The notes below the pieces were generated by a model. It was not told the origin of the DNA. It saw only the letters and a list, made by a program, of their open reading frames with translations, and ran no database searches. From a virus (Duplodnaviria > Heunggongvirae > Uroviricota > Caudoviricetes), in IMG/VR virus record IMGVR_UViG_2711768009_000009: a stretch of DNA of 43,679 bases, one strand, 5' to 3'. Position 1 is the first letter of the stretch. Each line of letters begins with the position of its first letter. Positions 6,088 through 9,411 of this stretch are shown here, in pieces. A program made the position numbers and the translations under genes.

Positions 6088-6342
6088 TTACATCATGGTA
6101 CTGTCAGTTCCGGGCTGAGCCGGGTCTGGTTGCTCTGGCTGCGCGTCGGTTTTCGGCTCATTATCAGCATCACTGGCCGCAACTGCTGGCCCAATAAGTT
6201 TTGCCAGCACTTCATCAACGTAAGTGTCGATTTGTGCCTCAAAATCCTTGCGGACCTGCGCTTTCAGCAACTTATTTACTTCACCGGAATACAGTGCCTG
6301 TTTTACCAGGTCTTCAGTGACGGTGCCTTTAATTTCTGGCAT
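6088..6342 (-). CDS. Hypothetical acidic protein (84 aa), cargo module
   Basis: ORF track; ATG preceded by a perfect AAGGAGG RBS. Confidence 0.55.
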   Translation of the reverse strand: MPEIKGTVTEDLVKQALYSGEVNKLLKAQVRKDFEAQIDTYVDEVLAKLIGPAVAASDADNEPKTDAQPEQPDPAQPGTDSTMM

Positions 6343-6377
6343 GTATATCCTCCTTATGCGGGAATAAAGCCCTGCAA

Positions 6378-6560
6378 TCAGGGCTGGGTCGGGTCTTTTG
6401 GGAGCGGAGTTACCTGCGCTGTTTTACTGAGTTTTTCAGCTGCTGCGTCCTCAATTTTGCGGCGAACATAATTTCTGATGGCCTTATAACCACCACTCAC
6501 CAGATATAACGCACATACTGCCGTGCAGAAATACAATAAAATAAGCTGTAAAAATGTCAT
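6378..6560 (-). CDS. Small membrane protein (60 aa from internal ATG; N-terminal TM helix, basic C-terminus), cargo module
   Basis: ORF track 6378..6572; ATG at 6560 preceded by GGGAGG RBS; hydrophobic stretch LQLILLYFCTAVCALYLV. Confidence 0.5.
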   Translation of the reverse strand: MTFLQLILLYFCTAVCALYLVSGGYKAIRNYVRRKIEDAAAEKLSKTAQVTPLPKDPTQP

Positions 6561-6656
6561 TATCCCTCCCAATTATTGACATGGTGTTGACACCGGTAAT
6601 ATCTGTTAGGTAAAAAGGTGCACTGCATTTTTTGCTTTGGATATAACGATCTTTTT

Positions 6657-6697
6657 GCCGCCGGTTTCTTGTTTTCCCTTACCGGCGGCATTTTTTT
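6657..6697 (+). terminator. Orphan plus-strand intrinsic terminator just beyond the 3' end of the NanS-like gene
   Basis: 9-bp GC-rich stem GCCGCCGGT/ACCGGCGGC with 15-nt loop followed by TTTTTTT on the plus strand; no plus-strand CDS ends here. Confidence 0.5.
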
Positions 6698-6704
6698 ATC
6701 CTGC

Positions 6705-8759
6705 TTACGCGTTATTCACTTCCACCACGATACTGTCAATCAGTACCGGGTAAGTCGCATTTTTAGTGATATCGGTCACGCGCAACTTGTCTGCCGTAAA
6801 CGTGCCGACCGGAGACTGCGACAGCATGAATGGTGTCCCGTCCTTACCATCAATGACCGGCGTCACCTCAATACTGTTGTTACCGGCAAAACGGAAGCCC
6901 AGCGTATGCCATTCGTTATTAAATGCGCCGAATGACCCCAGCTTCGTGTTCTGCGCCGTGTTTCCTTTGTGATACATCACGTTAAGGTCTGTGGCATCGC
7001 TCTGTACGTAGAACGATGCCAGCAGGTTATGACCGGCATTTCCTTCCAGAGTAACCCCTTGCGGCAGGGCAGAAACCGGCCAGTACAGCGCCAGTGCGTA
7101 CTGATTAGCCGTAAGCGCGCCATCGAGTTTAAAACGACAACTGACAAGACCACCTTTACCCAGCAGGTCCGCACCATTACCAGCATCATGCTCAAGGTAC
7201 CAGGGGGCTCTTCCTGTTTCCTTGGTCAGTTTCATTGCCTTACCCCCGCTGGCTCCGGCATCATCCACGATTTGAGCCTTGCCACCTCCGGCAGCCCAAC
7301 CCTGTGGTGTCAACCGTCCTTCAGACTCAGATGCCCGGTAAGCAAATAGCGTACTCATCGTCGTGGTGTCTGCGGGTGGCGTGGACGGTTTTGATGGTGT
7401 ATCAGGTGACGGCTTCTCATCCGGTGGTGTCACGGTCTGCCCACGCATCAGTTCAGCCGTGCGCCCTGCATGGAGCATAATAGCTGAGGCCAGACGGTCT
7501 GAAATGACGCCCCTGCGTGCCCATGAGCTGAAATGGCTGTCACGCTGTGTCGAAACAAAACTGCCCTGGGTTCGGGATGCTGCACCGTAATACCCGACAG
7601 CCACAATATCCGGGTCTTCCGCCGGAGCATTCGTTGGCGTGCTCTGTCCATTCTCATCCGTCAGGAACGGTACAAAGAAAATTTTCTGTGCTTCCTTGCC
7701 TTTGTAGCCACCGTATACTGCCTCATATTTATCGGTGCCAGCGTTTTTCCAGTAATACGTGGTATCACCGCAAATCCACGGCACCGTGGTGGCATTTCCA
7801 CTCACGCACTGCGCAGCAAGCGGAGCCAGGTCAGTTCTGAACTGCTGAACCATGGCCGTGAATAAACTATTATGCTGCTGGCTTCCTGAGGCAAGGTCTG
7901 CCTCTCCCTGCATCCAGACCACAGCCAGAAGTTTGTTTTTCGGGTTTTTCGCCAGCGCGACTTTGGTGCGGCTTACCAGGTCCTGATACAGAGGTTTACC
8001 GGCCCCCCAGCGTGAAGAATCAGCGGAAGCACCGCTGGCCTCACTGAATGAGCCGTCGGCTCCAGTGGTGAATGCTGACCCGCCACGACAACAGGGCACC
8101 AGAAGTATCCCGGCATTCTGTGGGATATAGGGAAGCAGTTTTTTGGCAATATGCAACCCCTGACCGACAGTCCCGTACTGGCCTTTTGCCAGATCAGCTT
8201 TCGGGTGGTTTATCCCGCTCATATCCTGAACATCATGCAGGCAGTGGTCTGCCGGAATGATGTCGTTGTATGTACACGACGTACCGTTGGGCGTTACCGT
8301 ACTGCGGCGTGCCAGTTGCTTAATGCGTGGGTCCGGGCGGTCAAACGAATCCGGTAACGGCAGCCCCTCGCCGTAGGCCATGCCATTTGACTGACCCGCG
8401 AGAATGACAACAAAGTAATATTCCGGCTCTGAACTGCTGCCATTCGTGCTACCGGAAGGCCCGGCGTTATCCGGTGCATTCCAGTCGGAGGGCGTGAGCG
8501 TTCCGGCCACGTCAGATGTGATTGGAATGATGCCAGTCACGCCTGAACTGGTGATTTCTGCACTGGGATTACCGGATACCGGCATTACCCATAATGGCTC
8601 TTTCGTGCTGAAGCGGATCACGCAGTCTGCGAAGGTGATCCCCCCTTTATTACCCGAAGGGCGGAAAGGGCTTTCAATAAATGCCACCGTGCCACCGGCA
8701 ACCTTGACTGAAAACTCTCCGGGCATGGCGGAGAGCATTTTCCACTTGGAGTCTGACAT
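6705..8759 (-). CDS. Multidomain NanS-like sialate O-acetylesterase (SASA/SGNH-type, GQSN motif) with N-terminal beta-rich domain, Pro/Thr-rich linker and C-terminal lectin-like domain (684 aa); prophage cargo
   Basis: ORF track; central region ...VILAGQSNGMAYGEGLPLPD...GILLVPCCRGGSAF...WMQGEADL... resembles the E. coli NanS / prophage NanS-p esterase family as recalled. Confidence 0.65.
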   Translation of the reverse strand: MSDSKWKMLSAMPGEFSVKVAGGTVAFIESPFRPSGNKGGITFADCVIRFSTKEPLWVMPVSGNPSAEITSSGVTGIIPITSDVAGTLTPSDWNAPDNAGPSGSTNGSSSEPEYYFVVILAGQSNGMAYGEGLPLPDSFDRPDPRIKQLARRSTVTPNGTSCTYNDIIPADHCLHDVQDMSGINHPKADLAKGQYGTVGQGLHIAKKLLPYIPQNAGILLVPCCRGGSAFTTGADGSFSEASGASADSSRWGAGKPLYQDLVSRTKVALAKNPKNKLLAVVWMQGEADLASGSQQHNSLFTAMVQQFRTDLAPLAAQCVSGNATTVPWICGDTTYYWKNAGTDKYEAVYGGYKGKEAQKIFFVPFLTDENGQSTPTNAPAEDPDIVAVGYYGAASRTQGSFVSTQRDSHFSSWARRGVISDRLASAIMLHAGRTAELMRGQTVTPPDEKPSPDTPSKPSTPPADTTTMSTLFAYRASESEGRLTPQGWAAGGGKAQIVDDAGASGGKAMKLTKETGRAPWYLEHDAGNGADLLGKGGLVSCRFKLDGALTANQYALALYWPVSALPQGVTLEGNAGHNLLASFYVQSDATDLNVMYHKGNTAQNTKLGSFGAFNNEWHTLGFRFAGNNSIEVTPVIDGKDGTPFMLSQSPVGTFTADKLRVTDITKNATYPVLIDSIVVEVNNA

Positions 8760-8844
8760 CGTCTTTTCTGCCTGTTTCTGAATTAAACAGAGTCAGAATA
8801 GCGACCGCTGAAAAATATGTGTTTTGCGGAAATTCAAAAAAGCG

Positions 8845-9411
8845 TCACGGTACTTTTGGTGACGGAGCTGGTGAGGCAGGAAAATAACGATAAAGGGTGG
8901 AAAGGCCAATATCAAATATCAGTGCGATTTGTTTACGGGACTCGCCATTAGCCAGCAAACGGGCGATTTGCTCCCGCTCTTTCTCTGTCAGTTTCTGAGG
9001 TCTGCCGCCATGACGCCCCTGAGCACGGGCAGCAGCAAGACCCGCGCGTGTACGTTCAATAATGAGTTCCCGCTCCATTTCCGCCAGCGCGCCCATTATA
9101 TGGAAAAAGAAACGTCCCATGGGAGTGGATGTATCAATATTGTCCGTAATGCTGCGGAAGTTAACGCCGCGTTGCCGGAGTTCTTCTGTTAAAAGGACAA
9201 GGTGCTGCATACTGCGTCCAAGGCGATCCAGTTTCCAGACCAGCAGGGTATCCCCTGGCCGGAGTCGCTTTAATGCGCGTTTAAGTCCGGGACGCTCCCT
9301 TGTCTTACCGCTTATTCTGTCTTCGAAAAACAGCTCACATCCTGCACATTCCAGCGCATTTCTTTGTAGCGCCGTATTCTGGTCATTTGTTGACACCCTG
9401 ATATACCCAAT
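8845..9411 (-). CDS. gin: Gin/Hin/Pin-family serine DNA invertase (188 resolved codons; start codon lies in the adjacent N-run)
   Basis: IGYIRVSTNDQNTALQRNALECAGCE...VWKLDRLGRSMQHLV...MGRFFFHIMGALAEMERELIIERT... is a near-canonical Gin sequence with the catalytic Ser motif. Confidence 0.9.
   Translation of the reverse strand: MGYIRVSTNDQNTALQRNALECAGCELFFEDRISGKTRERPGLKRALKRLRPGDTLLVWKLDRLGRSMQHLVLLTEELRQRGVNFRSITDNIDTSTPMGRFFFHIMGALAEMERELIIERTRAGLAAARAQGRHGGRPQKLTEKEREQIARLLANGESRKQIALIFDIGLSTLYRYFPASPAPSPKVP

Follow-up and report, generated by a model that had tools for sequence, protein, structure and literature searches.

The stretch of DNA analysed here, referred to as the window in this text (43,679 nucleotides, IMG/VR virus record IMGVR_UViG_2711768009_000009), carries a Mu-like transposable prophage of Escherichia coli. 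Its genes include a repressor, transposases A and B, late genes, gin, com and mom, and its tail-fibre segment is invertible. Between gin and com/mom we found a cassette of three genes on the minus strand. They encode a putative sialate esterase of the NanS-p family and two small proteins of the families DUF1378 and DUF826 (Table 1). The first-pass annotation of this DNA had described these three open reading frames (ORFs) as an insert in a Mu-like transposable prophage with no counterpart in phage Mu, and the comparison bears this out. Gin, Com and Mom are homologous to those of Mu, D108 and SfMu (Mom with 76-78% amino acid (aa) identity), and all of these phages share the transposable life style and an invertible segment for tail fibres. 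However, the stop codon of gin and the start codon of com are ~3.47 kb apart in the window, whereas in Mu the gap is 94 bp (end of gin at 35673, start of com at 35768). The right end of Mu also has different terminal repeats at the transposase sites. No esterase was found in Mu, D108, SfMu or related isolates, and NanS, DUF1378 and DUF826 were absent from all of 19 Mom-encoding loci from other species; in the three of those loci where gin is visible, it lies ~120-280 bp upstream of com or mom.

Table 1. Features of the cassette, its neighbours and the prophage ends (window positions)
Feature	Position	Strand	Basis and remarks
gin DNA invertase	8845..~9411	-	ORF; 5' part under N run 9412-9668; upstream cassette boundary
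nanS-p-like (putative esterase) gene, 684 aa, 72 kDa, isoelectric point (pI) 5.9	6705..8759	-	ORF; Pfam SASA and DUF6645
N-terminal domain, residues 1-95	8475..8759	-	AlphaFold model, all-beta; lambdoid NanS-p has DUF1737 at the same position
Linker 1, residues 96-111 (NAPDNAGPSGSTNGSSSE)	8427..8474	-	Disordered and fast-evolving, from AlphaFold confidence (pLDDT) and dN/dS
SGNH/SASA catalytic domain, residues 112-430	7470..8426	-	3PT5 match and motif blocks
Linker 2, Pro/Thr-rich, residues 431-468	7356..7469	-	Sequence
Lectin-like jelly-roll domain (DUF6645), residues 469-684	6708..7355	-	Pfam and 6YP6 match
DUF1378 gene, 60 aa from ATG	6378..6560	-	Pfam DUF1378, E 1.2e-31; phrog_494
DUF826 gene, 84 aa, acidic, pI 4.2	6088..6342	-	Pfam DUF826, E 6.4e-16; phrog_311
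Orphan ORF, 97 aa (86-aa version in RefSeq annotation)	5627..5920	+	Opposite orientation
com	5170..5370	-	RefSeq annotation in identical loci; downstream cassette boundary together with mom
mom	4479..5216	-	Pfam Mom, E 1.6e-77; 78% aa identity to Mu Mom; RefSeq annotation in identical loci
Prophage right end, three TTTGATAC repeats	4351..4432 (repeats 4368-4432)	.	Homology ends at 4351 in comparisons with three independently inserted copies
Prophage left end, ~43031; inverted TTTGATAC copies	42862/42914/43009 (region 42862-43016)		Repeat search

The large gene encodes a protein of 684 aa in which Pfam recognizes SASA (PF03629) at residues 117-312 (E 1.5e-13) and DUF6645 (PF20350) at residues 533-650 (E 7e-68). 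Residues 110-428 are 57.8% identical to NanS/YjhS of Escherichia coli O157 (PDB 3PT5, E 1.8e-117), and residues 469-683 are 68.8% identical to the C-terminal domain of NanS-p in the crystal structure 6YP6 (E 7e-98). The SGNH blocks of 3PT5 have been given as GQSNA, RGGSAF, MQGEFD and R-SHFS (PMC10792757), and every one of them has a counterpart in the window protein. The protein contains the motif AGQSNGMAYGEG; block I reads GQSNG (residues 122-126, with Ser124), block II RGGSAF (225-230), block III MQGEAD (283-288) and block V SHFS (at 408, with His409). The central NanS-like core, the Pro/Thr-rich linker and the lectin-like C-terminal domain proposed in the first-pass annotation were thus all recovered. 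A full-length AlphaFold model was not used (shallow alignment; mean predicted local distance difference test score, pLDDT, 43.9).

A protein search gave NanS-p proteins of 640-655 aa with DUF1737, SASA and DUF6645, which are 83-91% identical over 82-87% of the window protein. Every NanS-p allele tested from EDL933 and O104:H4 was reported to be an active esterase (PMC8065619), and NanS-p de-O-acetylates 5-N-acetyl-9-O-acetylneuraminic acid (Neu5,9Ac2) and mucin, which enables lysogens to grow on the acetylated sugar (PMC8065619, PMC8319020). We infer, with good support, that the window protein is a functional sialate 9-O-acetylesterase of the NanS-p family; to judge from its 58% identity to NanS and from identities of 83-91% to NanS-p alleles, its substrates would be Neu5,9Ac2 and mucin glycans. 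The protein would combine an SGNH enzyme with a lectin-like carbohydrate-binding domain, the modules being held on flexible linkers, and would strip O-acetyl groups from the sialic acids of host mucin.

Chromosomal NanS (YjhS, 3PT5) has a homologous catalytic domain and shares the blocks GQSN, RGGSAF, MQGE.D and SHFS. It is a single-domain periplasmic enzyme of ~330 aa with a signal peptide, whereas the window protein has three domains, and inspection of its N-terminus (MSDSKWKMLSAMPGEFSVKVAGG) by eye showed neither a Sec-type signal peptide nor a hydrophobic core. Its action would thus be limited to the outside of the cell once the phage has caused lysis, or to the phage particle.

The N-terminal part of the protein sets it apart from lambdoid NanS-p. 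The match to PHROG 143 (E 1.7e-296) begins only at residue 71. DUF1737 (PF08410), the N-terminal domain of lambdoid NanS-p, was not found in the whole protein at E<=0.1, and residues 1-95 had no Pfam match at E<=10; the same test gave DUF1737 with E 1.1e-15 for a lambdoid NanS-p (P0034). An AlphaFold model of the N-terminal domain has six beta strands at residues 7-79 (mean pLDDT 67, 70-85 in the core), followed by a disordered linker (pLDDT <50 from residue 82). The beta-rich domain that the first-pass annotation had predicted is therefore reproduced by the model, and the predicted fold resembles small jelly-roll/cupin barrels. In gp84 of phage phi24B, which is a NanS-p, the DUF1737 fold is a helix with three strands (bioRxiv 10.64898/2026.04.10.717836). 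A beta domain of ~80 residues that is unrelated to DUF1737 thus replaces it, and the junction lies at the domain boundary. This replacement, like the plus-strand ORF of 97 aa upstream of com, goes beyond what had been noted for this DNA before.

Two alignments place the junction. DNA homology to lambdoid nanS-p begins at window position 8429, corresponding to residue ~111, and a tblastn alignment with L0105 of phage 933W begins at residue 94 of the window protein, which is residue 57 of the 933W protein. According to a 2026 preprint (bioRxiv 10.64898/2026.04.10.717836), gp84 of phi24B is a capsid decoration protein whose DUF1737 (residues 2-57) sits as a hexamer on the central hexons, while cleavage at the linkers removes the enzyme part. 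Because the tblastn alignment starts at 933W residue 57, the boundary of the swap coincides with the end of the capsid-bound gp84 fragment Ala2-Ser57.

We searched for further proteins with this N-terminal domain. An exhaustive phmmer search of 1.84e9 representatives returned, beyond fragments of the protein itself, one clear relative, a Salmonella enterica protein with 30% identity in this domain; a fourth match (P0127, E 6e-4) was dismissed as an artefact that looks frame-shifted. Word-index searches, whether with the single domain or with a profile of three sequences, likewise gave, apart from the Salmonella relative, only fragments of these same proteins from E. coli/Shigella, and in all of these searches full-length proteins probably cluster under DUF1737-type representatives, so that some diversity may be hidden. 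A scan of IMG/VR found only the two E. coli alleles, a scan of species-representative genomes gave no match, and tblastn with the Salmonella domain against 50,697 phage records hit only Mu-like inserts in records of Shiga toxin (Stx) phages. Weak similarity was seen to phrog_4772, a family of stand-alone phage proteins of 79 aa for which no function is known (E 9e-6 for the Salmonella domain, E 5e-3 for the allele of the Sakai prophage Sp18, described below). In the Salmonella sequence, the domain passes into the same GQSN esterase; the gene belongs to a Mu-like prophage, where it lies downstream of gin, and the contig stops before the gene ends. Within the searches made, the domain is confined to esterases of Mu-like prophages of E. 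coli/Shigella and Salmonella. The Salmonella prophage (locus L007, 7426-7910) has two other small ORFs between gin and the esterase gene, one encoding 58 aa with a transmembrane helix at the C-terminus, the other an 87-aa protein resembling helix-turn-helix proteins.

The rest of the cassette has close relatives in lambdoid phages. NanS-p proteins of lambdoid and Stx phages (L0105/z1466 of 933W; gp84, also vb_24B_21, of phi24B) have the same SGNH esterase, the same jelly-roll lectin-like domain and the same small genes next to them. The identity of the window protein is 83-91% to some lambdoid alleles and ~65% to that of 933W, and linker 2 is 100% identical at the aa level to a lambdoid allele (L004). 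The differences are the DUF1737 N-terminus and the site between Q/stx and the holin gene S in the lambdoid phages, as opposed to the beta domain and the gin-com site in a Mu-like myovirus prophage. Between window positions 8429 and 6427 the DNA is 87% identical to the lambdoid locus; this stretch begins at residue ~111 of the esterase and reaches into the 3' part of the DUF1378 gene. This shows the segment from the catalytic domain to DUF1378 to be of lambdoid origin, and the derivation of the cassette from the lambdoid late region is well supported.

The two small genes had been regarded as unusual companions of the esterase, and this did not hold. The trio nanS-p/DUF1378/DUF826 is canonical for the lambdoid late region between Q and the holin gene, as in 933W and others. 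The lambdoid locus that encodes P0034 has the order Q, N6 methylase, NanS-p (with DUF1737), DUF1378, DUF826, holin and lysozyme. In 933W the same trio follows stx2AB; the DUF1378 ORF is unannotated there, and L0106 ends in a DUF826-like sequence. ORFs of both families have been described between nanS-p and S (PMC10462455). The characterization of the companions as a small membrane protein and an acidic protein proved correct: the DUF1378 protein has an N-terminal transmembrane helix followed by a basic tail (pI 9.3), and the DUF826 protein is the acidic one. Their ribosome-binding sites are indeed strong (GGGAGG for DUF1378, AAGGAGG for DUF826), and that of the esterase gene is weak. The mechanical ORF of the DUF1378 gene extends to a TTG at 6572; its length is counted here from the ATG. 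Searches of the PADLOC (defence-system) and NCBIfam libraries gave no meaningful match for the small genes. DUF1378 and DUF826 also occur in lambdoid prophages that lack nanS-p, which speaks against a dedicated partnership with the esterase. Their transfer to a place away from the holin gene hints at a link with the esterase, but hitch-hiking explains it equally well, and most likely they are co-transferred late-region passengers.

NanS-p-like genes were also seen in P2-like phages. In the Peduoviridae phage vB_EcoM-569R5 (L011, 1-1251) and in a P88-like prophage (L012, 1-1464), such a gene adjoins the lysis genes and is annotated as DUF1737-like. The esterase payload is therefore present in at least three phage architectures.

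The arrangement found in the window is not a single event. Prophage Sp18 of E. coli O157:H7 Sakai has the same gene order: ECs_4992 (invertase), ECs_4993 (679 aa, with SASA and DUF6645 and, as in the window, no DUF1737), ECs_4994 (DUF1378), ECs_4995 (DUF826), ECs_4996 (an ORF on the opposite strand), ECs_4997 (com) and ECs_4998 (mom). ECs_4993 to ECs_4996 are annotated as hypothetical proteins only. The window prophage is colinear with Sp18 from 43031 to 4351 (~38.7 kb, compared with 38,759 bp). The transposase region shows ~95% DNA identity, the regions for early functions, lysis and packaging 88-93%, and the block of remaining head genes and tail genes ~80%; at the right end the values are 69.7% for gin-nanS, 78.8% for DUF1378-DUF826 and 94.7% for com-mom. 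The two prophages differ in their esterase allele, the three domains being 63-73% identical at the aa level within the same architecture, and in the ORF on the opposite strand, which is unrelated.

The com(-mom) right end of the Sp18 lineage was present in 233 of 5426 complete E. coli genomes, and the alleles of the N-terminal domain in the same set of 5426 (205 Sp18-type, 28 window-type) add up to the same number, a comparison of totals and not a genome-by-genome intersection. This agreement suggests that the cassette is present in nearly every prophage of the Sp18 lineage. The right end of the family occurs in ~4% of complete E. coli genomes and is enriched in Shiga toxin-producing E. coli. 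The idea of an unusual, one-off cargo must therefore be given up. The gene block is standard in the Sp18 family, a possibility that the first-pass annotation had raised for characterised Mu-like phages together with a known virion function; the latter part did not stand, as no virion function is known for the block. Insertion sites include ypdB, an xdhA-like gene, dcuC, sorM and, in the window, IS66, and some genomes have up to five copies, which fits an active transposable phage. Sp18 itself was predicted to be intact, and its DNA is efficiently packaged (PMC2669165).

Could the esterase nevertheless be a decaying passenger, the scar of a recombination with a lambdoid prophage that has no present function in the Mu-like phage? 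Some copies do lie in degraded prophages (in DLI.5a most of the prophage is deleted), and the neighbouring slot, occupied in the window by the 97-aa ORF, is variable. However, the esterase ORF is intact in all alleles examined, and the ratio of nonsynonymous to synonymous substitution rates (dN/dS) between the window and the CI5 allele is 0.036 for the N-terminal domain, 0.086 for the catalytic domain and 0.126 for the lectin-like domain, that is, 0.04-0.13 in every domain, compared with 0.81 in linker 1. The N-terminal domain is thus under strong purifying selection and is the most constrained part of the esterase. The window and Sp18 alleles have kept the same architecture at 63-73% aa identity, an N-terminal domain of 30% identity is joined to the same esterase in Salmonella, and the genome counts point to essentially the whole lineage. 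We therefore regard decay as extremely improbable. It is well supported that Sp18-family phages carry the cassette, between gin and com/mom, as a fixed component kept by selection.

Within the window-type group, the N-terminal domain is 95-100% identical, and the remainder of the protein is a mosaic that is equally close to lambdoid alleles and to other Mu-type alleles. A mosaic payload behind a constant, phage-specific N-terminal domain indicates that the payload still recombines with lambdoid copies, and its esterase and lectin modules would stay interchangeable with the lambdoid alleles.

A role in adsorption was also considered. The protein might be associated with the tail and lay bare a receptor by deacetylating a polysaccharide of the bacterial surface (O-antigen, capsule or colanic acid), in the manner of SGNH esterases of tailspikes. 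This role has been raised for NanS-p in a review (PMC8065619), and here the gene directly follows the region of tail fibres, invertible segment and gin, with a weak PHROG match to a 'tail protein' (phrog_25867, E 1.2e-6) and a match of 29% identity to a 'minor tail protein' of an Arthrobacter phage. This reading seems improbable to us: the catalytic domain belongs with sialate-specific NanS and the NanS-p alleles by the identities given above, the enzyme and lectin domain are freely exchanged with lambdoid phages that are short-tailed and whose receptors are different, the invertible host-range segment does not include the gene, and the phi24B protein is located on the capsid, not on the tail (10.64898/2026.04.10.717836).

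On balance we favour, with some reserve, the reading that the window carries a functional nanS-p/DUF1378/DUF826 cassette, a component of the Sp18 family, in which the esterase's N-terminal domain was swapped, the new domain being a likely adaptor. The role as adaptor is proposed because DUF1737 has been reported as the capsid anchor of phi24B NanS-p. By analogy, the N-terminal domain may well be an equivalent that fits the enzyme to a Mu-type particle, although we put this forward tentatively. Classical Mu has a bare T=7 capsid (PMC11915804). In the window, the major head protein is encoded at 22725..23672 on the minus strand. A wider version, more tentative still, would make the N-terminal domain a hitherto unrecognized module for virion binding, by which particles of the Mu type (T=7, myovirus) display an esterase that modifies mucin, and NanS-p a plug-in decoration system. 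Such a system would consist of a phage-specific anchor (DUF1737 in lambdoid and P2-like phages, the beta domain in Mu-like phages), a cleavable linker and a shared esterase-lectin payload, which gut prophages of differing architecture would swap by recombination.

A soluble enzyme is nearly as likely as the adaptor. It is quite possible that the protein is a soluble moron, that is, a cytoplasmic esterase that accumulates during lytic growth, or at a low level in lysogens through read-through from gin, and is released by lysis without ever entering a particle. It would then deacetylate the sialic acids of mucin, on which surviving kin lysogens could feed. The N-terminal domain would then be a module for carbohydrate binding or oligomerisation. 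This corresponds to the published view of NanS-p, in which lysogens grow on Neu5,9Ac2 and mucin is de-O-acetylated (PMC8065619, PMC8319020), and it agrees with the lack of a signal peptide in the 684-aa protein. Small jelly-roll/cupin barrels, which the N-terminal domain resembles, are frequent among sugar-binding modules, and the gene lies outside the structural operons, beside the accessory genes gin, com and mom. A soluble enzyme leaves it unexplained that DUF1737 gives way, precisely at the capsid-anchor boundary, to a domain seen only in Mu-like prophages, and that this domain is the most constrained part of the protein; moreover, chromosomal NanS functions without such a module.

Several points weigh against the favoured reading of a functional cassette with a likely adaptor. 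The proposed location of the esterase on a Mu-type particle is argued by analogy, and the anchor role of DUF1737 comes from a single preprint. Enzyme activity and substrate are deduced from homology. The prevalence estimate compares totals, and the small genes occur elsewhere without nanS-p. As to the timing of expression, a scan of positions 4300-9500 for promoter and terminator consensus sequences gave hits at chance level only, and the esterase gene has the weak ribosome-binding site mentioned above.

As an enzyme the protein is ordinary; what distinguishes it, as a NanS-p, is the alternative module at its N-terminus and its occurrence in a different type of phage. The Sakai genome with the Sp18 cassette has been public since 2001. 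We found no description in the papers searched that links nanS-p with Mu-like phages, ECs_4993 or DUF6645, although an earlier mention elsewhere is possible. NanS-p esterases have been viewed as fitness and virulence accessories of Stx phages; their esterase-lectin payload is also a fixed part of the Sp18-like Mu phages, a second type of phage that is unrelated to the first. The Sp18-type esterase can thus serve as a test case for whether these proteins are virion-displayed devices for interaction with mucus, with exchangeable anchors, or simple metabolic morons. In addition, many genomes of enterohaemorrhagic E. coli, including Sakai (ECs_4993), contain a nanS-p copy that has not been counted, which matters for studies that delete or count nanS-p genes.

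The surroundings of the cassette showed some further features. The gin gene is 71% identical to Mu gin at the DNA level and is called 'recombinase family protein' in identical loci. The intergenic region between gin and nanS (8760-8844) contains the motif TGAATT..CGCAAAA, which an alignment shows to be kept between two diverged alleles. An inverted repeat (CTGTTT-AATTCAG-AAACAG) that precedes the start codon by ~14 nt is likewise kept in both. These elements may be a regulatory site or an RNA hairpin. Two N runs, at 9412-9668 (5' end of gin) and 10800-11030 (in a tail-fibre ORF), bracket the region of tail fibre and fibre assembly, so that the invertible segment and the start of gin are not fully readable.

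On the other side of the cassette, the segment 5371-6087 between the DUF826 gene and com has a low GC content (0.34-0.40). Its 97-aa ORF had no match in Pfam, PHROGs, NCBIfam or PADLOC. Sp18 carries the unrelated 154-aa ORF ECs_4996 in its place, and the position, which varies within the family, is apparently a variable slot for morons.

At the prophage ends, the TTTGATAC repeats, which stand in place of Mu-type end sequences, are probably the transposase-binding sites of the Sp18 family. The flanks of the prophage (2753-4350 and 43032-43679) place it inside IS66, with a C-terminal TnpC fragment at 3802-4260 and TnpB-like sequence beyond 43040, next to a gene for a lambdoid tail fibre (2753-3748). 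A search of the prophage ends revealed no target-site duplication, and the IS66 is rearranged; this suggests an adjacent deletion or rearrangement.

Two observations concern other copies of the family. The Mu-like insert in LC727881 (L003, 9221-10472) has com followed by a gene for a 350-aa DNA cytosine-5 methyltransferase (with GGTPCQAFS) and not by mom, and two further matches to the right end also carry a cytosine-5 methyltransferase instead of mom. Apparently, the anti-restriction DNA-modification gene has been swapped behind the same com regulator. In O157:H7 FRIK2455 (L009, 435-7036), an Sp18-like copy in dcuC lies beside the sialic-acid operon nanRATEK-nanQ, which, given the random insertion of Mu-type phages, is probably a coincidence.

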